From contig NC_090357.1 in NCBI RefSeq assembly GCF_035084215.1, forward strand, positions 12,152,001 to 12,216,000: 64,000 nucleotides of DNA, written 5' to 3'. Positions 6,234 through 59,565 of the stretch are shown piece by piece. Source of the DNA: Heptranchias perlo. Lineage: Eukaryota. Numbering within the stretch: the stretch's first letter is position 1; each line of letters opens with the position of its first letter. The notes beneath the pieces were generated by a model that did not search any database, was not told the DNA's origin, and saw only the letters and a program-made list of their open reading frames with translations. The position numbers and the translations under genes were made by a program.

Positions 6234-7896
6234 ATAAGTCACCCGGTCCGGATGGGATGCATCCTAGGTTGCTGAGGGAAGTAAGGGTGGAAATTGCGGA
6301 GGTACTGGCCATAATCTTACAAACGTTCTTAGATACAGGGATGCCAGAGGACTAGAGAATTGCAAATGTTACACCCTTATTCAAAAAAGGGTGTAAGGAT
6401 AAACCCAGCAATTATAGGCCAGTCAGTTTAGCCTGGTGGTGGGGAAACTTTTCGAAACGATAATCCGGGACAGAATTAACAGTCACTTGGACGAGGGTAG
6501 ATTGATTAAAGGCAAATCGTGTTTAACTAACATGATAGAGTTTTTTGATGAGGTAACAGAGAGGGTAGATGAGGGCAAAGCAGTTGATGTGGTGTATATG
6601 GACTTTCAAAAGGCGTTTGATAAAGTGCCGCACGGTAGGCCTATCATCAAGATTGCGGCCCATGGAATAAAGGGGGCAGTAGAAACATGGATACAGAATT
6701 GGCTAAGGGACGAGAAACAGAGAGTAGTGGTCAATGGTTGTTTTTCAGACTGGCGGGTGGTGTACAGTGGTGTTCCCCAGGGGTCAGTGCTGGGACCACT
6801 GCTTTTCTTGATATATACTAATGACTTGGACTTGGTATTCGAGGGCACAATTTCACAATTTGCAGATGACACAAAACTTGGAAGGGTAGTAAACAGTGAG
6901 GAGGATAGTGATAGACTTCAAGAGGATATAGACAGGCTGGTGGCATGGGCAGATGAAATTTAACGCAGAAAAATGCGAAGTGATACATTTCAGTAGGAAG
7001 AATGAGGAGAGGCAATGTAAATTAAATGCTACAATTCTAAAGCGGGTGCAGGAACCGAGAGACCTGGGGGTAAATGTGCATAAATCGTTGAAGGTGGCAG
7101 GGCAGGTTGAGAAAGTGGTTAAAAAAGCATCCGGGATCCTGGGCTTTATAAATAGCCATGATGTGGAGATGCCGGTGATGGACTGGGGTGGACAAATGTA
7201 AGGAATCTTACAACACCAGGTTATAGTCCAACAGTTTTATTTGAAAATCACAAGCTTTTGGAGGCTTTCTCCTTTGTATAGAGTACAATAGAGGCATAGT
7301 GTACAATAGTGTGGAAGTCATGATGAACCTTTATAAAACACTGGTTCAGCCAAAACTGGAGTATTGTGTCCAGTTGTGGGCACCGCGCTTCAGGAAAGAT
7401 GTGAAGGCCTCAGAAAGGGTGCAGAAGAGATTTACTAGAATGATTCCAGGGATGAGGGACTTTAGTTACGTGGATAGACTGGAGAAGCTGGGGTTGTTCT
7501 CCTTGGAACGGAGGAGATTTGATTGAGGTATTTAAACTCATGAAGGGTCCAGACAGAGTAGATGGAGAGAAATTGTTCCCATTGGCGGAAGGTCAAGGAC
7601 CAGAGGACATAGATTTAAGGTGATTGGCAAAAGAACCAAAGGTGACACGAGAAAAAACTTTTTTACACACCGAGTGGTTAGGATCCGGAATGCACTGCCT
7701 GAGGAGGTGGTGGAGGCAGATTCAATCATGGCCTTCAAAAGGGAACTGGATAAGTACTTGAAAGGAAAAAATTTGCAGGGCTACGGGGAAAGGGCGGGGG
7801 AGTGGGCCTAGCTGGATTGCTCTTGCATAGAGCCGGCGCGGACTTGATGAGCCGAATGGCCTTCTTCCATGCTGGAACCTTTCTATGATTCTATGA
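6234..7896 (+). mobile_element. CR1 LINE (HER1-type), 5'-truncated and decayed
   Basis: RT motifs GKSCLTN, VYMDFQKAFDKVPH, GVPQGSVLGP, FADDTK, LYKTLVQPKLEYCVQLW, FFTHRVVRIRNALP. The 3' end is (TTCTATGA)2. Confidence 0.95.
7156..7277 (-). mobile_element. Short Penelope-derived insertion (subfamily B) nested in CR1
   Basis: CCATGATGTGGAGATGCCGGTGATGGACTGGGGT...CACAAGCTTTTGGAGGCTTTCTCCTTTGT interrupts the CR1 frame. AATAG is duplicated (7151-7155 / 7287-7291), with a short locally templated filler. Confidence 0.85.
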
Positions 7897-10128
7897 CCCG
7901 CCTCTCTGGAGCGGGTTACTCAGACGTCGCCAAACCCACCGCGGTAAAACCGGAAGTAGGCGCGGCGGGTTGGGGTCGGGTTTCACATTTTTAACAATTT
8001 AACATGACCCTCTCCCGCACGCCGTGGGGGAGGGGGGTGAGCGGGTGGTTAAAATTCCCCATAAGTATTATATGGTTATCGTTCTTAGAAAATGGGTGAA
8101 ATGATGCACTCTGTGAGATTTAATTTTAGATTTCTACATATAAATCTCATCGATGATTGGAAAAAAGATACAATTTGACTTTAAAACGTCTGTTGTTGTA
8201 AACTCTCCAGTATTTTTATTCAGTGCTTTTTCAGTGTTATAACTGCCATGTATAATTTCAACGGTGTAAAATTACTGTGTTTCTCAAAATATATGTGCAC
8301 AGTTTCAACAAAACTGAATGTACCATCGCCTTAAACCGCTCTACTAACAAAATTTGCTCCAAGTGGGTACTGAAAACCTATTGTCTAGATCTAAAACTTC
8401 AAATAGTTAGAGCTTAAGACCTTTACACTACTAAATTCTGTCATAAAAAGAGAGCATATTGCACTTACAGTATGTGTACTTGGCAGCTAGTTCTGAAATG
8501 ACCCTGCTCGCTTCAGGCTAGGAGGTGGTACTGTTTTAAAGAAATTATTTTATGGGTAGACATGTGACACTGAATAAACAAATGAAATCGGTCCAACTTC
8601 TATTTTTAGTATTATTGTACAACCAAAAACACAAATGTGGAATTTCAGCAATTTTAATCAAACCTAACTAATTGCAACGTAACTGCTGATTATAATCTGC
8701 AGTCGTGACAAAAGATAAACTATTGATATTAGTATTGATATTAAAGGTAAAATATTCGATATTGTTAGAATCTAGACTCTGTGACTGGCAACACGATCCA
8801 GTATGTGTAATATTAGCTCAAAGTCCACTGAATATACACCAACCTCAAGTTCTAGCTGACATGAAGTCATCAGTTAATACAGCACAGTCATGCTACTTAA
8901 CATCAGGGATATTTTTTCAGCAGATAACTGGACTTGCAGGCCACTGATAGTTTCTTCCCAGGGAGGGTTGACTACAAGAATATTTCTGTCATGAAGTTGT
9001 TTCTATAAATCTCGCCTGTATTTTTAGTCTTGGTGCTGCTCGAGTAATCTGTTGACCGAAAATGGTATTGTTCTGTGAAAGAGGTACTTAATGTCATTTG
9101 TTGCATGGTGGAGGGACCCCAGCCAGCAGGGCAATCAATGTAAGCAACATATAACATCTGATTAGTTTAACATTCTTTCAAAAAAGGGTTCTTGATGGAG
9201 AGCCAAGAATTTTATCCAACTGTGCTTTTTTTTCTCCTCTTTGTAAAGCTGAATTCTTAATGTGGTGTACATTGTTTGTTTTGCTTTTGTTTTGCACGTG
9301 CTTTGACATCTATTTTGTTACACTGTCACAAACTCAACCCAGTCAACTATTTCTACCAGCCAGTGTCATGTTTATAAAACAACATTTAGCCACCGATGGC
9401 CTCTTAAGGAATGGAAAATAATTTCTTTCACTATTATAATTTTTATTTGCCATCCACTCCTGGGCTGCAAGGATGGTAGTAAAAAAAACCTTTAACTCCA
9501 TTCGAATTTCAGGACAGATGAGATTACATTTGTCTCCCATGTACCCATTTGACTGGCACAAAAGAGGCATTTAGATTTGGATGAAATGCTTCCTAAGTAG
9601 TATTATGCTGTGTTTTGGTTTGGGCAAGAGCCGTGTTATTTTTGTAAGGTCACTGAAAGTTCATGGCAATATGATATTCTTAAAATGAAGTTAATGTGAA
9701 ATAGACACCACATTAATTCACCTAAAGTTTAGAGCTGAATCGCATCTCCCACAGAGCAGTGGTAGTGAATTCTGCCAACTGTTTTACAAATAAGAAAGGT
9801 GGAATATCCTAAATGGTTTAACAGAACATGCTCGTAACTCATGGAATTATAAATGTGTGTCAAATGCTTTAAGTCTTTTATCATGTTTTTAAAAAACTTC
9901 AAAAAATTGGTTGCATATAATCTGGACCTAATGAAATAATAATCAAAAATTTTGGGATTGCTTGTATATTACCAAGGTAATAGAATTTAATTTAGTAAAG
10001 CCCAATCGTTTTCCTCTATCTTAGAAACCCATATGGGAATACACCATAAATTAGATGCAAGTTTGTTAATTTGTTTTTAAGTTCATAGGCTTTTTTTTCT
10101 GTTTTTTTCTAAGCTAGTCAGTTTTGCT

Positions 10129-10526
10129 TTATTCATTCTCAGGATGTGGGTGTCGCTGGCAAAGCCGACATTTACTGCCCACGCTTAGTTGCCCTGAGAA
10201 GGTGGTTGTGGGCCTTCTTCTTGAATCCCTGAACGGTTTGATACAATGAATGGCTTCCTAGGTCACTTCAGAGGAATCATGTTTTTGTGGGACTGGAGTC
10301 ATAAATAAGCCAGACCAGGTAAGGGCAGCAGGTTTCTTTCCCTAAAGGACATGTGAACTGACAGCTTCATGGTCATTTTTACTGATACCAGCCTTTTATT
10401 TCCAGATTTTTTAAAACTGAATTCAAATTCTCAAACTGCCATGGTGGGATTTGAACTCGCATTCTCTTGATTACTAGTCCAAGGTCTGGACCACTCGTTC
10501 AGTATCCTAACCACTGTACCACCATA
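10129..10526 (-). mobile_element. Full-length tRNA-derived SINE with Zenon-like LINE 3' tail
   Basis: The minus strand has an A-box-like TGGTACAGTGG and a B-box GTTCAAATCC. The body matches 2405-2739. The tail TTCAAGAAGAAGGCCCACAACCACCTTCTCAGGGCAA...GAATGAATAAA matches the LINE end at 2153-2257. Confidence 0.85.
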
Positions 10527-10629
10527 TTGCAGATCTTCCAACTTATTGACTTTTCTATGGTGTCCTTATCAATTTTTTCATGGCAGCTTAGAATGAATCT
10601 ACATACAATGATAGTATCAGTACCAAGTG

Positions 10630-10692
10630 TAAACAATTTTACAACACCAAGTTATAGTCCAGCAATTTTATTTTAAATTCACAAGCTTTCGG
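10630..10692 (-). mobile_element. Short Penelope-derived insertion (subfamily A), 63 bp
   Basis: TAAACAATTTTACAACACCAAGTTATAGTCCAGC...CACAAGCTTTCGG, flanked by TSD AGTACCAAGTG (10619-10629 / 10693-10703). Confidence 0.85.
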
Positions 10693-12254
10693 AGTACCAA
10701 GTGGTTTTACTTTGCACTGATACTGAAGTTGCAGTGCACCCTTGGAACTAGGGTGTGAGGTACCACAAAATTGCTACTTGACATGGATGCTACCTTTGTA
10801 GTGTAAATGCACCTTTGTAGTGTCCTGATTTAAATTCATCCATCCAATGCCACGTTTTGTGTTAAGAGTTCATTTACGTATGATACCCTGCATTGACTAT
10901 CTCCCTGCAAGCCTAAACATAAGATAGAAAGCAGGAATGGAGTTCATCTGGTGGCCCAGTGCATGAAATAGAATTTCAAACTGTGCTCCCCAACTGTTTT
11001 CACATTGGGATGTCCTGGCTTTTGCTTTTTAAAATCCGGTTTAGCTTGATCAACCTATGATTTCCCAATATCTGCCTTATCTAGCCTAACTTATTCAGTT
11101 AGTAGAGTCGAATCCTCTGGGCCACAGACCTGTTCATGGGAACTGCAAATTGTGCTTTATGACCAGCCAGCACAGGCTATGGGATTGCAGAGTGAGAGAG
11201 ACTGGACCTGCCAGCTTCTCCACTTGTTCAAGACGGTGCACTACCCTCTGTGCAGGGCTCCATATGGTGGTCAAATCTTGCACATTGAACACAGATGAGT
11301 TTGAATATCAGTCATGGCCAAAATTGAAACTTGAAATACTCTCCTTGGCAGGTTCGCTGTCTTGATTTTTACTCATTGTATGTGGAGGATGACTTGGGTC
11401 AAAGAATTTATGATAATGCCCTAAAGGTGGGTAATCCACCCTCAGAATCAATTAGTTATGCATGCAGGAAAAATCTACATCAAATAAGATTTTGAGTAAT
11501 TACATTTTTAAAAAAGCAATATTCCCAAGGGCACGGAACCTGATACGTTAAAGGGGTTTTGACATTTCCAATTGATACATATATCTAAGTCCTCCCACAT
11601 CTTTAAATATTTAAGATACTAGGTGCATCAGTTTGAGATCAACAGTGTTCTAAACCGCCATAAACCCTTTTATTCGTGACAGTTTAATGGTAAAACTCAT
11701 AAAATTATGTTTTAGAATGTCTCATGACTTGATCGCAGCACATATTGTAATACACGGTAATATTAGTATTTGATATGCTGGGAAGTGCAGTTTTTCTTTG
11801 AGACAGATCAGAAAGGAAATCATCACCCTGTTCTACAGTCTGAAGCATGTACTGGCATCAAATCCACTGGGGTGCCATTTCCATTTTTAGTCATGTTGTA
11901 TTTAGACAACAGAATTGAAGTAAGTGATGAAGATAGTTCGCTCTACCTTTTAGAAGAATTGCATATTTAATGTCATTCTAGTGGAAGTTCTGGTTTTGTT
12001 TTTAACGACACTTCATCGATTGATACTAAATGAAATAGAAAGAAATGATTACAGGGATGATCATAACACTATCACATGTTGCTGGATGTCATATCTTAAC
12101 TTAAGTGCTTATGTTTTGTTGGTTCAGTGGGATGGGTAGCCCTCTTTAGAAAAAGTTATAAATATGCAGTAGCTTTTTATCTGTTTTTAGATCCAGTATT
12201 GGAATTTTCATTATTTGCACTCAGTTTATTCATCTTCCTGATTATCCACCAGAA

Positions 12255-12790
12255 TTTTGTGTCGAACACCAGATTGTAGAGTATTGTAAATAGTGATCGG
12301 AATTGTGAAATACTGCAGGATAGACGTGCAGGTTGGGCAGATAGGTGGCAGATGCATGGAAAAATGTAACATCATATATTTTGGAAATATGAATAGGGAA
12401 AGGAAATACATGGTAAGATTTTAAATGGACTGGAGAAGCTGAGGGACCTTGATTATGCAAATGCACAGGTTATTAAAAATGGCATTGCAAATAGATAAGG
12501 CCATAAAAAGGCAAATGTAATCCTTAGTTTTGTATCTAGAGCTGTAGAATAAAACAGCAAGAAAAAAATTTTGAACTTGTTCATCTTGTTCATGACCTTA
12601 GATAGGCTGCAGTGCAGTATTGTATACAGTTTTGGACATGCCATCACAAGAACGATATAAAAGCAATGGAAAAAGCAGTATAGATTCATTAGAATGTTAT
12701 TAAGGATGAGGGATTATAGTTATAAAGAGAGACTTGAGAAGACTTTCACCAGAGCTGAGAAGGTTACAGTATTAGGTCTTCAAAATTATG
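12255..12790 (+). mobile_element. Old, highly decayed CR1 fragment
   Basis: Remnants of WADRWQM, CNIIYFG, YCIQFW and RMRDYSYKERLEK. Confidence 0.7.
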
Positions 12791-13127
12791 AATGGTTATT
12801 GTCATGGTTTGGGATCCTTTCACCTTTTTTTCACAAAGTCTTGGACACAAGCTACATTAAGATGTGTATTTTTAGCAAAAGCTTTCCTAAAAGGGATTAA
12901 CTTCCCAAGACAGCCCCATGCTGAGTTGTGGTTTGGTAGGCAGACAAATGGCAATTACAATGTGAGATGGGAAATTCTCCTCAGACATCCAAGCAATGGA
13001 CAATTCATTAGCCTTGTCTGATTATTCAGAAGGACACTTTGCACTTTGTTGTTGAAAAACTTTTCTTGATCTCTGGGGGTTGCTGTGAGAGAGGCTTTTA
13101 ACATTGAGAACATAGACACCAATAATG

Positions 13128-13275
13128 CATTGTTCTGTGAATTATAAATGCGACTTCATTTCGAGGATTTCATTTCCACATCGTTCACCTGAGGAAGGAG
13201 GTAGCCTCCGAAAGCTTGTGAATTTAAAATAAAATTGCTGGACTATAACTTGGTGTTGTAAAATTGTTTACAATA
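13128..13275 (+). mobile_element. Short Penelope-derived insertion (subfamily A) with complete hammerhead motif
   Basis: TSD ACCAATAATG (13118-13127 / 13276-13285). Contains TTCACCTGAGGAAGGAGGTAGCCTCCGAAAGCTTGTGAA followed by AATAAA. Confidence 0.85.
13184..13222 (+). ncRNA. Minimal type I hammerhead ribozyme motif (Penelope type)
   Basis: Stem I TTCAC/GTGAA, core CTGAGGA plus an extra A, stem II GGAG-GTAGC-CTCC, then GAAA. Palindromic AAGCTT replaces stem III. Predicted cleavage after CUU (13217). Confidence 0.7.
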
Positions 13276-13406
13276 ACCAATAATGAAGGCTGCGAAGGGA
13301 GTGGCCTGCTTTCCTGGGTTGTCGGACAGTACAGAGAGATTGTGCTTTTAAGTTGAGTTAGATAACCCATCAGAGTGGGCTAACGCTTGTGTGTTGTTTA
13401 TTTTTG

Positions 13407-13613
13407 ATGTGGAGATGCCGGTGATGGACTGGGGTGGACAAATGTAAGGAGTCTTACAACACCAGGTTATAGTTCAACAGCTTTATTTAAAATCTCAAGC
13501 TTTCGGAGGCTTCCTCCTTTGTCAGGTGAGTGACGAAGGAGGAAGCCTCCGAAAGCTTGTGATTTTAAATAAAGCTGTTGGACTATAACCTGGTGTTGTA
13601 AAACTCCTTACAT
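13407..13613 (-). mobile_element. Palindromic Penelope-derived mini-element (subfamily B)
   Basis: About 85-bp inverted arms around loop GGTGAG (13525-13530), with a 33-nt tail on the left. TSD TTGTTTATTTTTG (13394-13406 / 13614-13626). Confidence 0.9.
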
Positions 13614-14369
13614 TTGTTTATTTTTGTAACAGTACACGGACGTACTGTAATGCGTACTGTGGAATAAAGCAGCTTGCAATATGAACCGAACTTTGGTGCT
13701 AATTAGGTCTACCTTTGGAGAGATTGAGGGAGTACATGTGCGTAAGGCACAGTATTATAATTACTTGCGTAAAATCACAATGCTCTTACACTCCAGCTGA
13801 AGACTATGGCCCATGTTTCTGTGGTCATAAGTAGAAACTCCCATTTAGTTTGCAGTCTAACTTACATTTAGAATATAACTGTTCATGGGAAAGCCGACGA
13901 TTCCATCTATGTCACCTCATGGAAAGCCCATCTCCTGGCAATGGAATGCCATTGTAGCAGGAGCCACGGACTTGTCTGCCTTCCAGCTATCAGCAGTTAC
14001 AGGAATAAAAGGAGAAGAAGGGGAAGATATGTAAATATACTGCAGATTGAGTACTGAATGCTCCATTTGCAAACAGCAAATCTCTTCCATTTCATTTGAG
14101 TGTTGGCTGGTTGTGAACATCTTTCATTTGTATTATTTTCATTGAAAAGTTGAGCTTATTTCCATGTCTTTTTTCCACAATTCCCATCATAGAAAAAAAG
14201 GAAACTGCATCCATAAAAAATTTAGGGAACAGACAAAATAAAACCCATTACTTCGTGGCATGGAAGAAATGTGTTTTCCTTGCACACATTCTGAAATCCA
14301 TATAGCATACTAACTTAATCAGTTATGGAGGGAAGGAGAGTGTGAAAACCTATTTTAAGCAGAACATAT

Positions 14370-14810
14370 TTCTTTTCAATCCCTCCCCAGTTTTCTCCCT
14401 TGTAGTCACACTGGGGTTTCATGTATACTAGCTGCCTTCCAGTGCCTTACCCAAGTGGCCAATTTTCATGTGTGAGCCTAGACATCACAACGCAGCCTGC
14501 TCCTGTCCTACTCAATTTCTACCGTGTCAATACTGGAATACATTCTGAATCAGAGGATCCTGTTAAAATATAAAATACACACAACAAAACCAAAAGCATT
14601 CCAGCAGAGGTTATATGGCAGCAATTAGGAGTGTGAACCCTAGCTGAATTTCTCCTTTCACTTGCCGAAGGGTACTGAGACCAGTTATAGTGGCTGTACT
14701 GCTGCCTAGCTGAAATCATATAGATTAAGCACAGGTTGGGGGATTGAATCTGGGATCTTTCTAGTCTGTACAGTTTGGCTACGGAATTGGACTGTGCCTT
14801 TACCACATGA
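14370..14810 (-). mobile_element. Ancient tRNA-derived SINE (family also at about 16005, 28078, 33073, 44520 and 52285)
   Basis: The reverse complement contains GTCTAGGCTCACACATGAAAATTGGCCACTTGGGTAAGG and TAGGACAGGAGCAGGCT blocks shared with the other copies. Confidence 0.6.
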
Positions 14811-16004
14811 CCCATTATGGGAGCAAAATAATGCATTTAGGACAAGAATGAGAACTTTTGTGACAACACTTGGATACAAGATCCTACTCGAGGGAAATGC
14901 TTTGCAGAAAAGTAGAGACCTTGCGACAATTCTGTCAGTTCTAACATTTGATTATCAGTGATTTTTCCATTGTTTTTCAAAATGACTAAGTTTTATAGTG
15001 TACACACTTAAAATAATTAAAAATGAAATTGTTATAAACCATACCATGTAAGCATGGCTTAAAGAAACTTTATTGCATGTTATATTTTGAAGCTTTAGTA
15101 AATCTAAAGCAAATAAAGCTGTCTGTAAAAGTAAATAAGATATATTTTCCTTACTAATAACAGAGAAAATACATCATTTTTGATGTAAAAGATTTACCAC
15201 TAATGGTTTTTAGCCAGAAACGTGGCTGAGGCTGTGTTTGGCCTTGTGGAAATCTGCTGGGCCCTAGAGAAGTGGATAAAGCATTTCATTGTCACATTGC
15301 CAGGCTACACACATGCAACTTAGTTTTCTTATTTGCTTCAGTCCCTGAGGTACCATTTGAATTAATCACCACACATGTAGTGTGTGGGTTGTGCCAAAGA
15401 ACCCCACATTACAGATTCAATAAAACAAATTTTAAAAATGCAACGCAAGCATATGTTAATGGGGAAGAGAAGAGAGTGGGTCGAGAGTCCATGTTAGAAC
15501 TTCGCAGTCAAAAATGTATCCACATTCTCCATAAAAGGTGTTTCTGTGGAAGGGCTTCAGAATGTAGCAATTACTGAAAGTGATAGCTTTATACTGAGAA
15601 TGCAGTCGATAGTTTGCTAAGTGTTTAAACATTTGAGTACTTATAATATGGAAGAATTATGCTCGATGTAATTCATATATTCTAGGAAAGCTAAATTCAT
15701 CAGTTGACTTATGGCCTGTGTTTAATTATAACATGCATTCCAGCCTGGAGAGGTAATACAGTTAATGTGACTATGGTTCTGAGCTGTATCACAAATATGG
15801 AACAGAAGCAGTAGATGGCGGTAGAATATCACAATTGCTGAGCAGGACTTTTTCACTTTAAAGTTTCATTGTATTTTTAAGATATGGCATTCCTTGTCTG
15901 TTTTGCCATAGCTGTATAGTGAGAGTAAGCTTTCAAATTTACATTGTTAAACTACCTCCATTAAGTTTTACTTGGTGCTCAGCTAGGATGGCTCAAAGTT
16001 GCTG

Positions 16005-16228
16005 GATTAGGAAGAAGGGTTCCTGCTCCCGATCCCATACCTATTGACCTGTGCAGGTGAGAACAGGATTGGGCTATTCTGTGATGCCCCAATGACTAAA
16101 CAGCCGACCAACTTATTGCCTAAGCTCGTGAAAACTGCCTGCTTGGGCCAGGTACTGAAGGGTTTCCAGTATCTGTGGAGCTGTACCTCCGCACGAATCG
16201 GCACCTTCAGGAGACAAGGGTAGAAAAT
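16005..16228 (+). mobile_element. 3' half of the same ancient SINE family
   Basis: GGGTTCCTGCTCCCGATC...GGTGAGAACAGGATTGGGCT...GTGATGCCCC...TTGGGCCAGGTACTG...CACCTTCAGGAGA. Confidence 0.6.
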
Positions 16229-17300
16229 TGAAGATCTCTTTATAAATGTAGCTTGACCACCACTAATTTTGTAAACTAGAATGGTGTACTGTTCTGTTAA
16301 ACAAAATTTAATTTTCCACTGTATTTAAGAAAACATTGAAACTGTTTTACCTTGAAGAGTGCATCTCGTTCCTCTTGTTTGTGCTCGTGTTAAAGATGCA
16401 CATGCAACAGATTGCACGCAGACCAACCACATTTAGAAGCAGCTAGGTGTAGCCATATTAATTTCTTCTTCAGATGTGTTTGTGCAATCATGGATTGGTA
16501 AACATTTACACATACAGAAAGTGTTTGTTTTTGTCTGTGACCAGCTCAGTAATTTACAGATTTTAAAAAAATCTAAAAGAAGTTAAATCCTTTTGTTATA
16601 TCCTTGATTTGTATCCCCTTTGAGCTCATTCAAGCAGCAGGTTTCCATAACACTAGATCCATATTTGTTTCAATCGATAATATTGATATTAAAAAGTATT
16701 TAAGCATTTCTTCAAAAAGCAATGCTATTTAATAAAAAGGCTTGCTTGTTGTTAAATTTGCATAATGACATATTAATTGTGGATTAAGATTACGTTTTGC
16801 AAAACCCTGCTGCTTGAATAGGCTGGCACGGCAGCAGTGAGAGCCATTGGTATCATTGCGTCCTAGCGATAGCATGACATACAGTGTTGTAAGTGAGCAC
16901 CTCTACTAAAAGTTGTGACAAAAAGTTGGAGTATGGGGGCTGTGGTCCAACAGTAGTACACAGGTGGAGGCATAATAAAAGGTCCAATTTACATTGGAAA
17001 TGGGATACTAAATTAAGAATTTAATATGAATTGATCACTAATTGAATCATTGAGATGCCTCACAAGTTCTTTGGAGCAACCTTTTCAGATCGTGTGTTAT
17101 TTGGGGTAGTGGGTTGTGGATTACTGATTAAGTATTCAGTGTGTAGTATAGGGACAATAATAAATACCTGAAAGTAATCTCATCAAGGGGTTAATCCAGT
17201 TTCAGTTATCTGTATACTGTTTATAATTACACTGTTTCAGCTTGCTTTTTGTATGCAATGAGGAATGGGGTTATTCTGTATTGGCATGCTTTTGTCTACC

Positions 17301-17509
17301 GTTGTAAACAATTTTACAACACCAAGTTATAGTCCAGCAATTTTATTTTAACTTCACAAGCTTTCGGAGGCTTCCTCCTTCCTCAGGTAAATGAGGAAGG
17401 AGGAAGCCTCCGAAAGCTTGTGAAGTTAAAATAAAATTGCTGGACTATAACTTGGTGTTGTAAAATTGTTTACAATTGTCAACCCCAGTCCATCACCGGC
17501 ATCTCCACA
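17301..17509 (+). mobile_element. Palindromic Penelope-derived mini-element (subfamily A)
   Basis: Perfect 84-bp arms (17302-17385 / 17392-17475) around loop GGTAAA, then tail ACCCCAGTCCATCACCGGCATCTCCACA. TSD TTTTGTCTACC (17290-17300 / 17510-17520). Confidence 0.92.
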
Positions 17510-19109
17510 TTTTGTCTACCAGCAGCTGACTGGTTGTAGCCTTTAAATATTCTGTGATGATGTCCACATAAAAGGATTAATAATTGTAGTAACTTTATTA
17601 AGACATTCTGCATTGATTACTAGGAAATATTGTACATGTATTAAAAAAAAGTTTATCTTATGTGAAAGTGGTCATTCAAACTGTCATTATAGAGGTGGTA
17701 CAGGATACACTGATGTACAACATTTATACTTGACTGACAAAAGTGGTCTCAACTCAGAAATATTAATACCTTCAACAGTGCAATGGTTCATTCCTGCCCA
17801 CCACATGCTTTATGGCACAAGTTTTGACTTTGATATATATTCCAATTTTTAAAAAAAATCTTTGTATTTAATAGTACTTCAGGAACTAGCATTGGAAGAT
17901 GGAGCACTATGTCTTGACAATGGTGCAGCTGAGCTGGAAAGCTTCTATTTGTTGATTCTTTCTAATCAGTTCCCGTAAAACATTGCGGTTGTTAACACAA
18001 TCACTGCGTTTGTTTCAACTGGATTTAATTTCTGATCGCAATTTGAAATCAGACCGAGTAAAACAAACAAAGGCATAGAATTTTCGATGTGTTGGTGATG
18101 AAGGTATGATCTGCTTTGCTACTAAGATGCCACTTGTGGTGAGATATATATTATGTGGATGTATACTCATTGTATATAGACTGCTATTTTGTCAGACTTT
18201 AAATTTTCTCACAGAAGTAGCTGCATATGTTAAACAATACAATTTATTTCTTATTGTCTGCCAGTGAAAACATTTGGAGGTGCTTTATTGACATTGTTTA
18301 AACACTCTACACTGTAATAGCATTCTTCCACATGGATTGGATTTCTTAAGTATTCCAGCAGTATCTCTGTGTTTTGTCAAGAAATCTGGGATTTGTAGCA
18401 TTTTCAGTAGAGGATGATTTGGTAATTGGCCCCAAAGGATTAGTGAGAAGTCAGTGTTGGACAAGGCTGAGTTTTATTTTTGTTTTGCTCCCGCTCCCCA
18501 AGAAAAAATTGTAAGGAAAACCACAATTTTCATTGGCTCTCTCAGTTTTTTCAGATGATCTGTGAACATTTGAGGTCTCTTCAAGCCATTATCTTTTATT
18601 TAGAGAGATGCTTAATTTATTGTGCTCTTCTGATTTCAGATTTCCCCCTGCAAGAACTTCAGATTACTGTAGTTTATCATGAACTGAAGCCATGTTTTCA
18701 CAGACAGGAACGATTTATCTCTTTCACTTATGTTTTTCCCTTCAGGAATTCTGGCAGTAACACCCATGAAGAATAACACAGTTGATGCCAGTTGTTACTG
18801 TTGCTATGTTATTCTTAAGGGTGTCAACAAGGGTCTTCTAGCAATTGTTGCATTTTAAAATGTGACAGTGTTACTCGTGGAAATTAAGAGGGTAAACCAT
18901 TACTGTTGAAGCCAGTTGAATTTGCACTTTTGACAATGCTGGTCTTTTACTACAGTTGTAATGGAAGAATTCACTCTGTTCTGGATACAATGGGTTTCAG
19001 GTCAAGATCAATGTGTGCATGCAGCTGCTATATTCTGTGTTGTGCTTCACTTCCGTCCTAACGAGTTTTGTTTCTCATTACACTATTCAAAGTCAAATTC
19101 ATTGGTCGT

Positions 19110-19171
19110 GTTCCTCCTCCCTATCAAGGCCATTGATCTTGTTCCTCCTCCCTATCAAGGCCATTGATCTT
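19110..19171. repeat. Perfect 31-bp tandem duplication at the 5' junction of a Penelope mini-insertion
   Basis: GTTCCTCCTCCCTATCAAGGCCATTGATCTT occurs twice in tandem. Confidence 0.95.
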
Positions 19172-19262
19172 GTGAATTTAAAATAAAATTGCTGGACTAT
19201 AACTTGGTGTTGTAAAATTGTTTACAATTGTCAACCCCAGTCCATCACCGGCATCTCCACAT
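19169..19262 (+). mobile_element. Short Penelope-derived insertion (subfamily A), 3' arm plus tail
   Basis: CTTGTGAATTTAAAATAAAATTGCTGGACTATAAC...GGCATCTCCACAT, with CATTGAT on both sides. Confidence 0.88.
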
Positions 19263-20429
19263 CATTGATACATTAAGTTTCAGATGGAAGGTAGGTAGAT
19301 GGATGAGTGTGTTGTGTCTGACATTAGTAATGCTCCTTCAGAGTTGAGAGCAGACCTACTTGAGTGTAAGACACGGAACGAAAGTCCTTCCCTTTATCAG
19401 TGATGAACACTTCAGTGGTCGAGTTATGAACATTGGGGCTCAGTTAGCAAACAGTGAAATCCAACATAGTGCTTAACTTGGCTTCAGTGGCACTGTTGGC
19501 ACTCAAATCTATAACCATAGGAGCATAAAGTAAGCATACAAACAACCATGGACTACTGGTGCTCATATCTGTAACTATAGGAGTGTGAGGTAAGCATTGT
19601 CTACTTCTTCTCCATGTTCTAGTGAAATGTCTCCAATATGAGTTTCATCTCTCAAACTGACTCCTGCGTAAAAGTGGTGGCAACCAAAGTGAACATAAGT
19701 ACACTTGAAATTGACCTCAGTTGAATTCTATTCCCTCAGTTAATTGGGGCTAACTACAGTGGCTGTGTTATTGTACAGTGAAACCATTGTTAAACAGTTA
19801 TGGTGTAGAATGACCAAAGGTGGTTGTGGAGGATAGGAGGCTCATTAATCCAGGTTAACAATGATTCATTTTTGTAACCTGATAACTAACTGCAGCTGAA
19901 TGCAGTCCTTTTAATACCCAGTGTATTTCTACTAGTCGTGCTTTCAAAGAATTTCTCACTCACCAGTTTCTGTTCTGTCTAGTATTTTCAGTGGGTTACA
20001 TACTCCTCAGTTTCTGTTATTGTAAGCAGACCAGATATGTATTTTCTGTGGCTTCTTGTTTTATTTTTAACTGTGTTCATTTATAATTATACTTTGGCAA
20101 GCAAAATAATTGATTTTAATCAATAGAAGCTTTTGATCTCTTTGACCCACGTTGTACAAAGATTGGCTGAAGTACTTCCTAATAAGTTCGTAAAGTCAAA
20201 AACATCAAATGTCAACAAAAACATTAGCAAGATGGTAACAATTAGGAAAAAAAATTATAGTTCTCCGTACTTGCCAAGGTAATGCAGTTATGACAGAGAA
20301 ACACATCGTTGAATCGAATCTTGAGCAAGCCTTCTCCATCACAGACCTTAGGGGTCACTAACAATACAATTTATCGTAGGACAATTCTTTTTCAACCAGC
20401 TCCTATATTGGCCTTGGAGGGGCTACAGG

Positions 20430-21739: not shown

Positions 21740-21986
21740 ATGGAGCAGCCCAGGAGGAAGGCTGCTCCCAGGTTTAATGTTGCCTCACTCCAGGTATCAT
21801 TGGATGGGGTGAGGAGGAGGGGGAGGACAGAGATCCTCCCCCCCGGCGGGCGGGAGGAAGCGGCCTGCCTCTGCCACCAAGAAGGCCTGGCTCGAGGTGG
21901 CAGAGGAGGTCACCAGCACCACCAACATATTGCGCACCTGCATACAGTGCAGGAGGCGCTTCAATCACCTAAGTAGGTCAGCCGAA
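21740..21986 (+). pseudogene. Harbinger Myb/SANT-like DNA-binding protein, first coding exon (frameshifted)
   Basis: MEQPRRKAAPRFNVASLQVSLDGVRRR... shifts frame to AWLEVAEEVTSTTNILRTCIQCRRRFNHL. A GTGAGT donor follows at 21987, and a TATTTAAA lies at about 21683. Confidence 0.8.
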
Positions 21987-22529
21987 GTGAGTACACTTAG
22001 TCATTCCCCTACACTCCATCTGCCACATCACCGCCCCCACCCCACATCTCCTTCTGCACTGCCAACACTATTCTATCACATCACCCCTCACACCCACTCA
22101 AAGCTCATCCTCATCTTACCTGCTCTTACTCACCTCGCCAGTACTCATCCCACCACTACCACTCAACCCAATCCTCATACAATCTCATGGCTGAATCTCA
22201 TACTCACCCTCTGATGCATCTCTTTCACGGTCAGCCTCACTCAACCTGCCACGACCTGTGCTGCAGCCACAGGGCATGCATCACATATGTGCAGTAGGAA
22301 GCGTAAGGCAAACATGTCGTGAGCATGAAGGGTGTTTGAGGATTTGTCATGGTGTTTACCTATATTTAATTTCTGATCAACTCACATTACATATTATATT
22401 GTCACCACTACTGCCACGTCTTTGCAAATCTTGTCTGGTTTGTGCAATATTACCCTTTCCTGAGGATCACTATGAAGACCCACAACTGATGCCACCCATT
22501 GTGTCACTGCAGAGTGGGTGCAGGTGTAT

Positions 22530-22930
22530 TTGCAGGGCTCTTTTGTGCAGATGACTGAGAGACGTCGGCGATGTCCCCAGTGGCACCCTGGAAGGAGGCG
22601 GAGGAGAAGTTGTTGAGGGCAGTGGTGACTTTGATAGCGACAGGTAAGAAGATAGTGCTCGGGCCAGCCGGGAGCAGCTCGGCATGAAGGAGGCTGCAGA
22701 TGTCCACGGCTACATGTCCACGGAAGCTGAGCCTCGGTCTGTCAACCCTGTGGCGAGGGTAGTGCCCTCTGTGAAGCATCTCTCTCTGCCTTTGCCCTCC
22801 CTCCTGCTGTGCAGGTGGATGTGTCCCAGCACTGTGTTGTGGAGCTGCACGTGTTAGAGGTGCCTGGCGAGGCTGGTGATGCTGTTCGCCCTCCGAGGAG
22901 GTTATCACTGCAGCTACGGGGGCCCCTATC
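22530..22930 (-). pseudogene. Harbinger (HARBI1-like) transposase, N-terminal fragment
   Basis: RGHYPRHRVDRPRLSF...DICSLLHAELLP...LPVAIKVTTALNNFSSASFQGATGDIADVSQSSA matches the HTH region of Harbinger transposases. The DDE region is absent. Confidence 0.82.
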
Positions 22931-25900
22931 CGGAAGATGTAAATTTGAGGGGGTCCACAAAGTAGGTAAATGTGTCTGGACACCGGGGTAAGTGTGCAAG
23001 TTTATGCATTTGATTGTTAGGAGGAGGGTGGTGGAGGCCAAACTTTGTCCAAACTGACAGAGTGGCCTCCTGCAATGAGTGAGTGAGGGTCTCCCCCCCC
23101 CCCCCCCCCCCCCCACCTGTCAAATGGACTTTTGCAGATGCCACAGGCTGGTGGCTGCAACACGTCCATTTCAACTGGGAGTGTTTCCCCCAGTACGGGA
23201 AACAGTCTCAGTTAATTGCAAAATCCGATCCCTCCTAAAATATCAGGTCAATCAGGTCTGTAAACAACCTGAAGTACCTGTTCAATTACTTTAATTGGCA
23301 CCCTGACGGCTTTAATTGCTGGCGGGAGTCCCACATGCGGGGGCTGCGCACGCATGTGAGCGCGTCACTGGGGAACCTGGAAATGGGGCGGGTTGGAGCC
23401 GGGCTCCGGACCCGCCCCAGGAATCCCACATTTTCGCAGCCCCCCCCCCCCTCCCGCCACCAACGCACCAACGCAGGTGCGAAAATAGAGCCCTTTGTGT
23501 CCTCCTCACAGCTTACTTTCCCACCTACTTTTGTATAGTCAGCAAACTCGGTCCCTTCATCTAAGTCATTAATATAGATTGTAAATAGCTGAGGCCCAAG
23601 CACCAATCCGTGCGGTATTCCACAGCCTGCCAACCTGAAAATGACCTGTTTATCCCTACTCTCTGTTCTCTGTCCGTTAACCAATCTTCTATCCATGCTA
23701 ATATATTACCCCTATCCCTATGAGCCCTTATCTTGTGTAACAACCTTTTACGGTGGCATCTTATCAAATGCCTTTTGAAAATCCAAATATACTACAAACC
23801 ACTGGTTCCCCTTTATCTACCCTGCTCGTTACATCCTCAAAAAACTCTAATAAACTTGTCAAACATGATTTCCCTTTCATAAAACCATGTTGACTCTGCC
23901 TTCTATTATGATTTTCTAAATGCCCTGATACCACTTCCTTAATAACGGATTCCAGCATTTTCCCGACGACTGATGTCAGGCTAACTGGCCTGTAGTTCCC
24001 TGTTTTCTCTCTCCCTCCTTTCTTGAACAGCGGGGTTGTATTTGCTACCTTTCAATCCGCTGGGACCATTCCAGAATCTAGGGAATTTTGGATATTTAAC
24101 AGCTGAAAAATATACTGTGGGATGAATTATCTAAAGAAGGTAGTAAGGAAATGGAGGTGGAGAGAGGGTAGGGGGCAGCAACACTAATGGAATCTTTGTG
24201 TTTTGTGGCATGGCTGCTTCAGTTTTACTGCAGGTATAAAATCCACAAATAAGTTTCACTGCTGCAAATAGGTTTCTAAATTGACCAAAGGGGTGTATCT
24301 TTTGATAACACTAGCATAAAGAAATCCCATGTCCCATTATTACATTTCTGCTTTGTTTAAGCAGCATTGTATGTTTGATCCATTTCCTTGAGCATTGACA
24401 TAAAAAAGCTGTAAGGAATGATCCAGAAGATTTAAATCACTGGAGGCTACATGTTTCACAGTAGAATCTGCTGAATCACTCTTGTAGCCACACATACATG
24501 CATGAAACACGCTTTTAAAATTTTAAAAACATTCGAACAATATAATCTGTCTTAATCTTTTCTCACTAGCTAATCGAAAGACATTTTAGAATTATTTTGC
24601 CTCCTAATAAAAAATACAATTTTCTCAGTTACTAGCCAAGTCCATGAAAGTTACTGTTCGTATATTGAAGATATGTCTTGGATATATAGGGTTGAAATCT
24701 TTTGGGGAAAGATAATAATTTGTCATATCTTAATAGTTGGAACAATCGTAGAATCACTGATCCATGTCCTATTCCTTATCCTCTTCTCTTATGCTTTATT
24801 TATAGCAGGAGGCTGTAGTATAAAAGTCAGCATATTAGAACCTGAATAGGTCTGCAGTGGATCTCAACAATACTTCATTTCACCCTGTTCCCAGCAAGAA
24901 GCAAATCATTTTGTGGCTGGCTCCCTGCAGAGGTTAAGTCAATGTTGACAATAGATCCCTGGACACCTGACGGGAGTTAAATTGTTAAACTGGTGTAAGG
25001 CCATTCTTCAGTTGTTTTACTGATATTAATTTTTGCCTGGACTTACAGTGCTTTTGATTATGACTTGCCAGGAACTAACCGTGTTAAAGCTGAGAAGGCA
25101 GGGAAAATAGATTGTAAAACAACAGTTTAATCTTTTCACACAGCTCCATAAAGAGTAAAAGGCCATCGCCTGCGGTTCTCTTCAATTCTGGCTTAAAGCA
25201 AGATTGTCTGCTAAATATTTGTTGCGCAACACTCACTTATTATTAAATCTACGTAATCTGACATTACAAAACCACTGTTCTTGCATTATGCATAAAAAAA
25301 CAATTTACAGATACCCAGATAGTCTTTACATCAGTAGGGGAGAAAAATCCAGCTGGAAAGTAAGTGCATATGAACAGATTTATCTAAATCAAGATTCTGT
25401 GATTGGTGTTCCTGTTTATTGGACTATTTCAGATGTCATGAGTATATCCAGTCGGTCCTTCCATGTTACAAGAGGATTAATTTTCTAAATTCCTGGCCAC
25501 AGGGAGCTTTAATTAAATATTTTATGGTTTTTCCTTATTAAATTTGCGACTTAAAAAAGTAATGAGCCATATGCTTTCACTATTTGATTAAATAAATGCT
25601 TCCGTATGAATTATATTTCCAATTGTCACATGAATGTAAAAGTATAATGGATTCCCTTATCTTCATCATAGTTTGTTACACTTAGTGAATGAAATCAGAC
25701 TGTGCATTACAGCCAACACATACACTAAATGTGTGTTAATGTGTAGTAATTTGCTGTGATAGCATTAATGGGTTTTGCCCATCCTTCTAAAATGCGCTGG
25801 ATTGTACTACATTAATACAAAAGCTCAATATTAATGATTTTTGGCTTGTTAAATACCAATTAACACTAAATGTGCAGCTATAATCACGCTAGCCTTTGAA

Positions 25901-28077: not shown

Positions 28078-28350
28078 CTTAGTAATTAAATGCACTGCAT
28101 GGTGTGATGCCCATGTAGATTAGAAAGGTTAGATCCCTGGATTATGCTGATTTTGCCGATCTCAGCTGAGATGGCAGTGGCGACACTACAATCAGTCTCA
28201 GCATCTTTGGCCAAGGAAGGAAAAATCAACCAGTATTCCCAAACTCTATGCTGTTCAATGACTTTGCTAACGGTGACCTGTGTCTGACCACTGGATAAGG
28301 ATAATATGAAACTTAGTTTTGATTAACCCATAGTTGATTAGCCTGTCTAG
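28078..28350 (+). mobile_element. Ancient tRNA-derived SINE copy
   Basis: TAAATGCACTGCATGGTGTG...GATCTCAGCTG...CTACAAT...GGAAGGAAAAATCAACCAG is collinear with 33073-33480. Confidence 0.6.
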
Positions 28351-28754: not shown

Positions 28755-28893
28755 CTTTGGCCAAGGAAGGAAAAATCAACCAGTATTTCCAGACTTGATG
28801 CTGTTCAATGACTTTGCTAACGGTGACCTGTGTCTGACCACTGGATAAGGATAATATGAAACTTAGTTATGATTACCCCATAGTTGATTAGCC
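28755..28893 (+). repeat. 139-bp direct copy of 28205-28343
   Basis: Ungapped match with 6 mismatches by eye, offset 550 bp. Confidence 0.95.
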
Positions 28894-30093: not shown

Positions 30094-31019
30094 TACTCAC
30101 TGCAGAATACCCAGCCTCTGACCTGCTCTTGTAGCCATAGTATTTGTGGCTGGTCCAGTTAAGTTTCTGGTTAATGATGACCCCCAAGATGTTGATTGTG
30201 GGGGATTCGGTGATGGTAATGCCGTTGAATGTCAAGGGGAGGTGGTTAGACTCTCTCTTATTGGAGAGATGGTCATTGCCTGGCACTTGTCTGGTGCAAA
30301 TGTTACTTGCCACTTATCAGTCCAAGCCTGGATGTTATCCAGGTCTTGCTGCATGCGGGCACGGACTGCTTCATTATCTGAGGGGTTGTGAATGGACCTG
30401 AACACTGTGCATTCATCAGCGAACATCCCCATTTCTGACCTTATGATGGAGGGAAAGTCATTGATGAAGCAGCTGAAGATGGTTGGGCCTAGGACACTGC
30501 CCTGAGGAACTCCTGCAGCAATGTCCTGGGGCTGAGATGATTGGCCTCCAAAAACCACTACCATCTTCCTTTGTGCTAGGTATGACTCCAGCCACTGGAG
30601 AGTTTTCCCCCTGATTCCCATTGACTTCAATTTTACTAGGGCTCCTTGGTACCACACTCTGTCAAATGCTGCCTTGATGTCAAAGGCAGTCACTCACCTC
30701 ACCTCTGGAATTCATCTCTTTTGTCCATGTTTGGACCAAGGCTGTAATGAGGTCTGGAGCCGAGTGGTCCTGGCAGAACGCAAACTGAGCATCGGTGAGC
30801 AGGTTATTGGTGAGTAAGTGCTGCTTGATAGCATTGTTGACGACACCTTCCATCACTTTGCTGATGATTGAGAGAAGACTGATGGGGCAGTAATTGGCTG
30901 GATTGGATTTGTCCTGCTTTTTGTGGACAGGACATACCTGGGCAATTTTCCACATTGTCAGGTAGATGCCAGTGTTGTAGCTGTACTGGAACAGTTTGGC
31001 CAGAGGCGCGGCTAGTTCC
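30094..31019 (-). mobile_element. Second Zenon-like CR1-group LINE copy, truncated at both ends
   Basis: ELAAPLAKLFQYSYNTGIYLTMWKIAQVCPVHKK, FDIKAAFDRVW, GVPQGSVLGP and MFADE. Closely similar to 802-1680. Confidence 0.92.
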
Positions 31020-48732: not shown

Positions 48733-48735
48733 TTG

Positions 48736-49397: not shown

Positions 49398-49596
49398 ACA
49401 ACACCAGGTTATAGTCCAACAAATTTATTTGAAAATCACAAGCTTTCGGAGGCTTTCTCCTTTGTCATTCACCTGACGAAGGAGAAAGCCTCCGAAAGCT
49501 TGTGATTTTCAAATAAAACAGTTGGACTATAACCTGGTGTTGTAAGATTCTTTACATTTGCCAACCCCAGTCCATCACCGGCATCTCCACATCATG
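49398..49596 (+). mobile_element. Palindromic Penelope-derived mini-element (subfamily B) with complete hammerhead motif
   Basis: About 70-bp arms around loop TTCACC (49468-49473), then tail ACCCCAGTCCATCACCGGCATCTCCACATCATG. TSD CCAAACATCATT (49386-49397 / 49597-49608). Confidence 0.92.
49469..49505 (+). ncRNA. Minimal type I hammerhead ribozyme motif
   Basis: TCAC-CTGACGA-A-GGAG-AAAGC-CTCC-GAAA-GC-TT-GTGA. Predicted cleavage after 49501. Confidence 0.7.
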
Positions 49597-55104: not shown

Positions 55105-55289
55105 GTGGCTTGAGGTCCAGGTTGTTAACCTGACATGTACTCAACACTGGGTTGTGTACCTCAGGCTTTTACAGGAAGCTATCTGGCCTGGAGGAGCCTT
55201 ACCTAAATGGCCGAAGCCAGCCAGAACTCAAAAGCAGAAAGAACAGACCCAGGAACTGGCCTTCCAATGCCTAATGAAGATGCTGCCAG
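55105..55289 (+). CDS. SNX19: Sorting nexin 19, internal coding exon (C-terminal Nexin_C/PXC region)
   Basis: Acceptor TTTTCTGCTTACAG, donor GTTAGC, 185 nt, phase 2/1. It encodes (R)WLEVQVVNLTCTQHWVVYLRLLQEAIWPGGALPKWPKPARTQKQKEQTQELAFQCLMKMLP, which aligns without gaps to my recollection of human SNX19 RWLEVQVANLTSPQRWVQYLLLLRESIWPGGVLPKFPRPVRTQEQKLAAEKQALQSLMGVLP. Confidence 0.93.
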
Positions 55290-55969
55290 GTTAGCATATT
55301 TTTATTTTTAGTAACTGGAAGGGCTAAATTCAATTGTATCTCGCAGCAGGGAATGAATTTCCTTTACTTGACTAAAAGCAGGTAGATCTGCTTGACACGT
55401 GGCTTTCAAGGGGGAATAGTATGTTGTGAGGGAAATATTGGATATGTTCATTAAAGGGAAAACAAAGTCCAGGGGAATACTCATTGTTCAAGATACTCCT
55501 TGTAGAGTTTTCATCCCCTTTAAATTGTGTAAGTTTGAATAGTAGAAAATCATATTGTCCTTTAAGACAGTGAAACCACTCTCCAGGCCTTACAGGAGGA
55601 TTTGCTGAGCAATGAAAGATTAGCTAACAAGAAGTATTGAAGATAAAATTCAAAGGAGAAATACATAAAAGATAGGAAATAATTAAAGTTCAGGATGGTT
55701 TTACAAAAGCCATGGTTGCAAAACAGCATAAGTATTTAATCCTACCTCACTGTGACCTTTCTTGCCCTTTCATGTATTTTATGCCCTCCATATAGTGCTG
55801 CAAACAGCCAAATAAACATCAATGATGATAAATATTTGGCAATAAGTTCATGGTTAAATCCAGTTTAGCACTGCTACTGACAGTCACGAGCCACTGATAA
55901 TTTGTTATTTTTGAAGATCGCAAATATATTAATGGAAAAGTTGTATGTTAGTTTTTAAAAATTTTGTAG

Positions 55970-56534
55970 TGGTTAGACCGCACCTGAAGTACTGTGAGCA
56001 GTTCTGGACACCGCACCTTCGGAAGGACATATTGGCCTTGGAGGGAGTGCAGCGTAGGTTTACTAGAATGATACCTGGACTTCAAGGGTTAAGTTACGAG
56101 GAGAGATTGCACAAATTGGGGTTGTATTCTATAGAGTTTCGCAGGTTAAGGGGTGATCTGATCGAAGTTTATAAGATATTAAGGGGAACAGATAGGATGG
56201 ATAGAGAGAAACTATTTCCGCTGGTTGGGGATTTTAGGAGTAGGGGGCACAGTCTAAAAATTAGAGCCAGACCTTTCAGGAGTGAGATTAGAAAACATTT
56301 CTACACACGAAGGGTTGTAGAAGTTTGGAACTCTCTTCCGCAAACGGCAATTGATACTAGCTTAATTGCTAAATTTAAATCTGAGATAGATAGCTTTTTG
56401 GCAACCAGAGGTATTAAGGGATATGGGCCAAAGGCAGGTATATGGAGTTAGATCACAGATCAGTCATGATCTTATCAAATGGCGGAGCAGGCACGAGGGG
56501 CTGAATGGCCTACTCCTGTTCCTATGTTCCTATG
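55970..56534 (+). mobile_element. CR1 3' fragment, young, same subfamily as 37706-39199
   Basis: Uninterrupted ORF VRPHLKYCEQFW...FYTRRVVEVWNSLP...GIWS*. The tail is TGTTCCTATGTTCCTATG. Confidence 0.95.
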
Positions 56535-59455: not shown

Positions 59456-59488
59456 TCCTTCTCTCTCTCTCTTCCCTAATCTGTATTG

Positions 59489-59565
59489 ATGTAAGGAATC
59501 TTACAACACCAGGTTATAGTCCAACAAATTTATTTTAAAATAAATGTGGCACCTCCACATCATGG
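59489..59565 (+). mobile_element. Collapsed Penelope mini-element (subfamily B)
   Basis: Start of the inverted arm, a residual palindrome ATTTATTTTAAAATAAAT, and tail end CTCCACATCATGG. TSD CTAATCTGTATTG (59476-59488 / 59566-59578). Confidence 0.85.

Follow-up and report, generated by a model that had tools for sequence, protein, structure and literature searches.

Eight short inserts in a 64-kb shark window

Here, we analysed a 64,000-bp stretch of the shark Heptranchias perlo (contig NC_090357.1, positions 12,152,001 to 12,216,000; hereafter the window), which carries eight short, related inserts with hammerhead ribozyme motifs and Penelope-like element (PLE) features. A preliminary description had placed these inserts at 7156, 10630, 13128, 13407, 17301, 19169, 49398 and 59489, and all eight were found there (Table 1; each insert is named below by its first position). 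Blastn with five copies as queries recovered the eight loci and nothing further in the window above the noise of 13-28 bp. An nhmmer search with an arm profile returned 11 arms at E<=1e-15 and nothing else in the window below E 2; beside these 11 aligned arms there is a 12th piece, the 18-nt tail fragment of 59489. Between their target duplications the inserts measure, in locus order, 131 (including 11 nt of filler), 63, 148, 207, 209, 94, 199 and 77 bp. Half of them are inverted, the other four are single truncated arms, and none of the eight is tandem. The arms range from 18 to 147 nt, so that size is bounded and not, as had been claimed, uniform.

The target duplications measure 5, 11, 10, 13, 11, 7, 12 and 13 bp in the same order. 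Among 1500 random position pairs, duplications of at least 10 bp occurred in 0.9%, of at least 7 bp in 10.8% and of at least 5 bp in 76%. The proposal that each insert has its own duplication of 5-13 bp holds beyond chance for six of the eight (10-13 bp), whereas the 7-bp duplication of 19169 is weak taken alone and the 5-bp duplication of 7156 is supported by its empty site, a collinear CR1-like long interspersed element (LINE) that reads through when the insert is removed. At several 3′ junctions 1-4 nt are common to insert and target. The A tract of the element is found at none of the 12 ends, and there is no poly(A). A 31-bp tandem at 19100-19173 abuts 19169, and the second of its two units on the left of the insert starts like the insert junction; it is probably target-templated filler from an aborted joining, with slippage onto the flank during insertion.

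The division of the inserts into subfamilies A and B was borne out. B arms differ from one another by 0-3 nt, A arms by about 3-11%, and A from B by about 10-18%. Judged by these divergences, B is recent and A older. The catalytic G8 of the ribozyme lies in a CpG in subfamily A and has become an adenine in three of the five A arms, a loss that would be consistent with neutral decay. Behind the estimate of about one copy per 8 kb lies an uneven spacing: six of the eight starts fall within 12 kb (P about 0.02) and all B inserts lie in a stretch of 8.5 kb, which makes the density a poor basis for extrapolation. The close grouping of the four B inserts (10630-19262; P 0.009) may reflect local hopping or a regional hot spot.

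Table 1. Features of the window (sites, arms and subfamilies as in the text)
Feature	Position	Strand	Remarks
7156 insert, subfamily A, single arm (7156-7275) with tail end	7156-7286	-	in a CR1-like LINE
7156 insert, 11-nt filler	7276-7286		like adjacent target; duplication 7151-7155 / 7287-7291 (5 bp)
10630 insert, subfamily B, single arm	10630-10692	-	tailless, ending at site 1; 5′ end within stem II; duplication 10619-10629 / 10693-10703 (11 bp)
13128 insert, subfamily B, single arm	13128-13275	+	no tail; duplication 13118-13127 / 13276-13285 (10 bp)
TATA-like box	13143-13149	+	in the extra 56 nt of 13128
Inr-like motif	13170-13176	+	its A is 13172; distance from the TATA-like box 29 nt
Complete minimal type I hammerhead	13184-13222	+	predicted cut after 13217; stem I, CUGANGA, bulged A, 5-bp stem II, GAAA, palindromic AGCU replacing stem III
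AATAAA	13228-13233	+	downstream of the hammerhead
Small hairpin at 3′-end site 1	13257-13272	+	site 1 at its 3′ foot
13407 insert, subfamily A, head-to-head palindrome	13407-13613	both	13-bp duplication
13407 arms	13407-13530; 13531-13613	-; +	minus arm with tail; plus arm without tail
13407 junction	13522-13533		TCA 13522-13524, loop 13525-13530, TGA 13531-13533
17301 insert, subfamily B, head-to-head palindrome	17301-17509	both	11-bp duplication
17301 arms	17302-17391; 17392-17509	-; +	minus arm with complete hammerhead, no tail; plus arm with tail
17301 junction	17386-17391		loop
Two 31-bp units	19100-19161	+	adjoining the left side of 19169
19169 insert, subfamily B, single arm	19169-19262	+	with tail; duplication 19162-19168 / 19263-19269 (7 bp)
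49398 insert, subfamily A, head-to-head palindrome	49398-49596	both	12-bp duplication
49398 arms	49398-49467; 49468-49596	-; +	short minus arm; plus arm with complete hammerhead and tail
49398 junction	49468-49473		loop
SNX19 exon (Nexin_C, about aa 858-920)	55105-55289	+	AG/GT-bounded; sole SNX19 exon in the window
59489 insert, subfamily A, inverted	59489-59565	both	13-bp duplication
59489 arms	59489-59540; 59548-59565	-; +	minus arm without tail, joined to 18-nt plus tail piece

The hammerhead ribozyme

A relaxed minimal-hammerhead descriptor matched the window at exactly 13189(+), 17386(-) and 49473(+), while 200 Markov shuffles gave an expectation of 0.01 matches per 64 kb. The three matches agree with the statement that the motif is complete in 13128, the minus arm of 17301 and 49398, and the descriptor also places the predicted cut of the 13128 motif where it had been expected. 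Set in an alignment of eight arms, the three complete motifs show the features given for PLE ribozymes in PMC4209133, namely a bulge before stem II, a G10.1-C11.1 pair and a palindromic stem III region. The A and B ribozymes differ at N7, at the loop-II closing position and at the end of stem I. None of the ten pairs of stems I and II shows a double change and six are invariant, a near-invariance that leaves the covariation test little to say; the cells of these stems are paired in 90% of cases compared with 31-52% when the alignment was slid. The ribozyme region is not more conserved than its flank (5 of 39 versus 8 of 52 changed columns), and two of its five changed columns are ties or CpG decay. 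By minimum free energy (MFE) prediction, the monomer would form stems I and II, and the predicted two-strand MFE structure is not the active dimer.

In the Rfam search of the whole window at E<=5, none of the 12 matches was a hammerhead and all were under the gathering score. The best of these matches were sub-threshold microRNA models, and the microRNA and leader matches reflect the insert hairpins. A coding constraint on the unit, for which several A/B changes are synonymous in one frame, was also considered and set aside: this frame has no start codon, and four synonymous changes out of about eight are unremarkable.

A base-identical junction in the palindromes

The three full palindromes (13407, 17301 and 49398), which represent both subfamilies, carry the same fold-back junction at the 5′ edge of the ribozyme, identical to the base in all three. 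It consists of TCA, a 6-nt loop and TGA, and one arm opens with the 5′ strand of stem I, its partner with U4 of the core. An automatic scan for palindrome centres did not supply these junctions: in the three palindromes it gave wider loops in a tie, and it found no good centre in 59489. Along the reference cDNA, a snap-back of at least 3 bp is possible at 29 of 129 end positions and one of at least 2 bp at 65 of 129, and three coincident junctions have a chance of about 1 in 800 or rarer if they are independent and uniform. In the fourth inverted insert, 59489, the turn lies at a natural AT palindrome, from which the sequence skips to the tail.

The arms of 17301 are identical (0 differences in 84 positions), those of 13407 have three private changes in common, and those of 49398 differ at 4 of 70 positions. 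The short arm of 49398 differs from 59489 at only 1 of 38 positions, and two changes that it has in common with 59489 are absent from its partner arm. Arms group by subfamily and, in two of the three palindromes, by locus too, indicating that the junction was remade or the arms were homogenised, and that the palindromes are not plain copies of one hairpin. We rejected a pure single-strand fold-back as the sole mechanism for 17301, because the tail sits on the arm which, under that mechanism, would be copied from the other, and consider it doubtful for 49398. The tail side of 17301 and the affinity of the 49398 short arm point to two cDNAs, and the two arms of 49398 appear to derive from different templates.

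Two classes of 3′ ends and bounded 5′ ends

Counted relative to 13172, the 3′ ends of the 11 aligned arms fall at +99 to +103 (five arms), at +88 (one arm) and at +136 to +142 (five arms), and the 18-nt piece of 59489 likewise ends at the tail. There are thus two classes of 3′ end about 35-40 nt apart, and each of the four inverted inserts has one end of each class, with the tail at one end only. Six of the eight inserts end in CTCCACA(T), in agreement with the preliminary description. The small hairpin at site 1 holds the only compensatory change found, one among 19 predicted pairs in five sequences: at the inner pair 13262/13267, B has A-U where A has G-C. The distance between the two end classes matches the 30-40-bp tail of PLEs (PMC8557442). 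The ends of two inserts are the same, CATCATGG and then CTA, and these two junctions suggest that the tail may end at the start codon of a downstream ORF; in Penelope of D. virilis, a 34-bp repeat is described at the ORF start (PMC2377424).

At the other side, 10 of the 11 arms begin between +13 and +51. Only 13128 reaches farther, to -43, and it is the sole copy extending upstream of the ribozyme (56 nt). The TATA-like box and initiator (Inr)-like motif in this copy (13143-13176) form a candidate transcription start of the pseudo-long terminal repeat (pLTR), as judged from the motifs; a TATA and Inr pair at such spacing occurs six times in 128 kb (both strands) and is thus rare. A rotifer PLE is described with TATA and Inr motifs in its pLTR, a shorter inverted pLTR and duplications of 8-10 bp (PMC3846280). 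We also considered the 56 upstream nt as a repeat of the downstream unit or a wrap-around of the tail, as a circular or tandem origin would leave it, and rejected this (shuffle P 0.14).

The predicted cut is spanned by 10 of the 11 arms and none begins there, and 19169 starts 3 nt upstream of it. The templates were therefore mostly uncleaved, as also described for the PLE studied in PMC11167929.

Relation to Penelope-like elements and other known systems

The inserts had been called Penelope-derived and hammerhead-bearing. The pLTR anatomy and the minimal type I hammerhead support this, while no parent with reverse transcriptase (RT) and GIY-YIG domains was found in the searches given below, so that membership rests on cis features; on these, the inserts very probably belong to a PLE family. 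The cis features of endonuclease-containing (EN+) PLEs that we found are the hammerhead, the tail at one end, inverted and truncated copies, duplications of variable length and the lack of poly(A). The Pfam search covered 293 of the 751 stop-free frames of at least 40 aa (those of at least 52 aa outside masked repeats) plus two sets of 7 and 12 chosen frames, and returned only LINE RVT_1, Nexin_C and weak matches below cutoff (including Myb/SANT), a result that shorter or frameshifted PLE remnants could escape. Protein searches with frames through the unit gave no significant match among three candidates each, and two exact-pattern scans of bacterial and archaeal genomes, made with host contamination in mind, gave 0 matches each. 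A profile-free protein search returned five matches of 34-44% identity over multiple stretches, which we judged compositional and set aside.

Like the inserts, EN+ PLEs (Penelope/Poseidon and Neptune) carry a minimal type I hammerhead in the terminal repeat (PMC8557442, PMC3846280, PMC4209133), with an optional 30-40-nt tail at one end, a head-to-head inverted copy, variable duplications and strong 5′ truncation. The inserts differ from them in that the arms are only 18-147 nt long, no ORF lies between the arms and three inversions have one junction. For PAc (Poseidon of Anolis carolinensis), in vitro work describes two internal RT start sites that define the tail, a start at a stem-loop, and both strands being cut and extended, all as in the model proposed below; PAc ribozyme mutants still insert, so that cleavage is dispensable (PMC11167929). 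By its published description, however, the PAc ORF begins within stem II, and the start sites are found 111 nt or more inside it, whereas the inserts have a stop codon after the ribozyme in all three sense frames and their only candidate ATG is at the tail end.

The minimal hammerhead ribozymes of animals have, like the inserts, a bulge before stem II, a G10.1-C11.1 pair and palindromic positions 15.2-16.2. They are described as mostly single, with some opposite-strand pairs 100-700 bp apart, and as attributable to truncated PLEs (PMC4209133). In the inserts, by contrast, the opposite-strand motifs overlap at one junction, and stem II has 4-5 bp compared with 7-8 bp in Schistosoma; the parts of that article that were consulted do not mention chondrichthyans. 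Metazoan non-LTR retrozymes are likewise non-coding and related to pLTRs, with a type I hammerhead and long duplications; their defining features are circular RNAs and head-to-tail repeats in which every unit carries a ribozyme (PMC7229834; bioRxiv 10.64898/2026.07.22.740005). The inserts have neither tandem units nor ends bounded by the cut site.

In L1 twin priming, two cDNAs started from two target nicks produce an inverted insert from non-overlapping parts of one RNA. The inserts differ: a single short segment is copied in each of the two arms, and in one case two templates are suggested.

A model for the formation of the inserts

The account that we consider somewhat better than evenly supported is that the inserts are ORF-less products of an EN+ PLE family in which internal initiation of reverse transcription near the RNA 5′ end yields short, length-capped and joined cDNAs; as part of this model, the family would have been active in two waves, an older one of A and a recent one of B. 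The PLE protein with RT and GIY-YIG domains would nick both target strands about 11-13 bp apart, in keeping with the observed duplications. Each nick would then prime reverse transcription internally at one of two sites 35-40 nt apart, giving the observed ends without or with the tail by the mechanism described in PMC11167929. Initiation on the pLTR copy near the RNA 5′ end would leave about 100-140 nt of template upstream, and the resulting cDNA would be short, ending at the transcription start immediately above the hammerhead or close to it. A single cDNA would be joined to the target at its far end through microhomology, sometimes with target-templated filler. Two cDNAs would be joined head to head by way of a fold-back of 2-3 bp that is fixed at the ribozyme's 5′ edge, producing the observed palindrome with a tail at one end. 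The ribozyme would be carried as part of the pLTR, with uncleaved RNA as the template, and its cleavage would not set the ends. Of the two options first offered, a strongly stereotyped product is thus favoured over a mini-retroelement, and it maps onto published PLE biology (PMC11167929, PMC8557442, PMC3846280).

Several points weigh against this account. The searches of Pfam, proteins and bacterial and archaeal genomes found no RT or GIY-YIG parent, the sample is eight inserts and the length test is borderline, and the unit folds with unremarkable z-scores (-0.25 to -1.7). The start site was noticed after the fact from motifs in one copy, the junction lies about 10 nt downstream of it and not at it, and the D. 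virilis Penelope promoter is described as TATA-less and internal (PMC2377424). Moreover, 59489 stops 4 nt below the predicted cut, as it could if its template had been cleaved. Both the identity of arms and the mosaic of 49398 could result from gene conversion, and PMC3846280 attributes head-to-head palindromes to self-priming on an antisense template.

Among the alternatives, ordinary severe 5′ truncation appears unlikely but, with so small a sample, is to be taken seriously. It would derive the inserts from the 3′ pLTR of long PLE transcripts through a poorly processive RT, without a length cap and with the junction as a pause at the ribozyme fold. PLEs are indeed described as typically heavily 5′-truncated (PMC8557442, PMC8969392), 13128 passes the predicted start by 43 nt, and the stopping point of the long arms coincides with the 5′ strand of stem I. 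The narrower-than-exponential spread of arm lengths, which favours the main account, has P values of only 0.03 (11 arms) and 0.05 (8 inserts). However, no arm of the 11 is longer than 147 nt, against the 300-1500 bp reached by self-matching LINE-like segments of the window, and the three identical junctions fall among many possible sites. Quite unlikely, in our view, is a non-autonomous mini-element, a promoter-keeping solo pLTR like 13128 or a hairpin master, mobilised in trans by the PLE protein in the fashion of short interspersed elements (SINEs). The high local density and the lack of a coding remnant speak for it, mobilisation in trans is reported to need no more than pLTR sequences (PMC3846280), and PLE derivatives that are non-autonomous are known (PMC8557442; bioRxiv 10.64898/2026.07.22.740005). 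If initiation is internal, everything 3′ of the tail would be hidden, and a short non-coding RNA template would look like a full mRNA and be indistinguishable from it in the inserts. The SINE-like part of the proposal fails in that a tRNA or RNA polymerase III head is absent by tRNA search and Rfam, there is no B box in three arms on both strands, and one lone A-box-like match was found; there is no A-rich or repeat tail and the architectures vary. A hairpin master, furthermore, predicts arms clustering by side, which they do not, and the tail is on the loop-bearing arm in two palindromes and on the other arm in one. The common end of two inserts, as a possible start codon of a downstream ORF, would also speak against a mini-element.

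An origin as a non-LTR retrozyme, in which ribozyme-cleaved and circularised RNA monomers are reverse-transcribed and inserted, is very improbable. The type I hammerhead, a size in the right range and long duplications would suit it, and retrozymes derived from pLTRs have been reported from one chondrichthyan (bioRxiv 10.64898/2026.07.22.740005). The retrozyme-like label nevertheless did not survive: head-to-tail tandems are found in none of the eight inserts, no arm begins at the cut and nearly all cross it, the upstream sequence of 13128 is no wrap-around of the tail, and the motif is minimal and not of the canonical form with loop-loop contacts (PMC7229834). It is extremely improbable that a miniature inverted-repeat transposable element (MITE), or a DNA transposon of the fold-back kind with long inverted repeats, gave rise to the inserts. 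Three of the eight inserts are near-perfect hairpins of 70-85 bp with duplications, as such an element would be, but the variable duplications (5 to 13 bp) and the four single 5′-truncated arms already largely refute it, and the ends are asymmetric and a hammerhead is present.

A more far-reaching version of the PLE account, which we regard as possible but doubtful when all its parts are taken together, is that the formation of hairpin inserts is programmed into PLE transposition: a dimeric RT would make two short strong-stop-like cDNAs, one per start site and sometimes from different RNAs, which are joined at one invariable fold-back on the 5′ border of the hammerhead. The ribozyme fold or the adjacent start, not cleavage, would set the insert boundary. 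In this shark lineage the process would be dominant, giving abundant ORF-less palindromes of ~200 bp that possibly propagate themselves non-autonomously and place long double-stranded RNA (dsRNA) hairpins in introns.

The host gene and other features of the window

One frame of the window matched Nexin_C in Pfam (E 5e-14). Among 38 relatives of this frame, the ten best are sorting nexins of sharks, rays and chimaeras with 81-89% identity, and nine of these ten are named SNX19. Tblastn of nine of these ten against the whole 64-kb window found no second SNX19 exon, and none within 1-55104 upstream. The inserts had been assigned to SNX19 introns. Since the exon at 55105-55289 is the only SNX19 exon in the window, the intronic position of the eight inserts is likely but inferred. 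The 55 kb without an SNX19 exon upstream of 55105 may be a very long intron or hold exons too short or diverged for detection.

Elsewhere in the window, a GC-rich island at 21813-22211 (+) with a weak Myb/SANT-like match (E 0.001, below cutoff) faces a broken frame at 22507-23119 (-), a layout that we take to recall a Harbinger transposon remnant. A direct repeat of 139 bp (28205-28343 / 28755-28893, 96% identical, 550 bp apart) may be LTR-like or a local duplication, and a GC-rich 27-bp minisatellite occupies 62327-62710 (14.2 copies, 96% matches). A LINE RT fragment is present as two young inverted copies (802-1673 / 30102-30969, 92%), and a similar inverted pair (37706-38264 / 55970-56532, 95%) could form long intronic dsRNA.

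Significance

Truncated PLEs are reported to have left very numerous dispersed minimal hammerheads in animal genomes, both single and on opposite strands (PMC4209133), and these, together with tails and inverted pLTRs, are already published. In the literature searched, outside Repbase, Dfam and subscription journals, neither this family of the shark nor an inversion junction identical to the base is described, and the family may already be catalogued. One mechanistically useful detail is the base-identical junction in three palindromes. Inverted pLTRs and tails are called undefined features of the PLE cycle in PMC8557442, and the later steps of PLE insertion are called unvalidated in PMC11167929.

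For SNX19 itself, little effect of the inserts is expected, because only 13128 would offer a free sense-strand ribozyme and this is predicted to need a dimer partner. A young and apparently abundant family with complete, duplication-bounded inserts of less than 210 bp would supply thousands of readable insertion events per genome. Such copies risk being mislabelled as SINEs, MITEs or microRNA hairpins. The family could separate twin-cDNA joining from antisense self-priming, and it could be used to ask which of the two limits the length of the cDNA, the start of transcription or the fold of the ribozyme.

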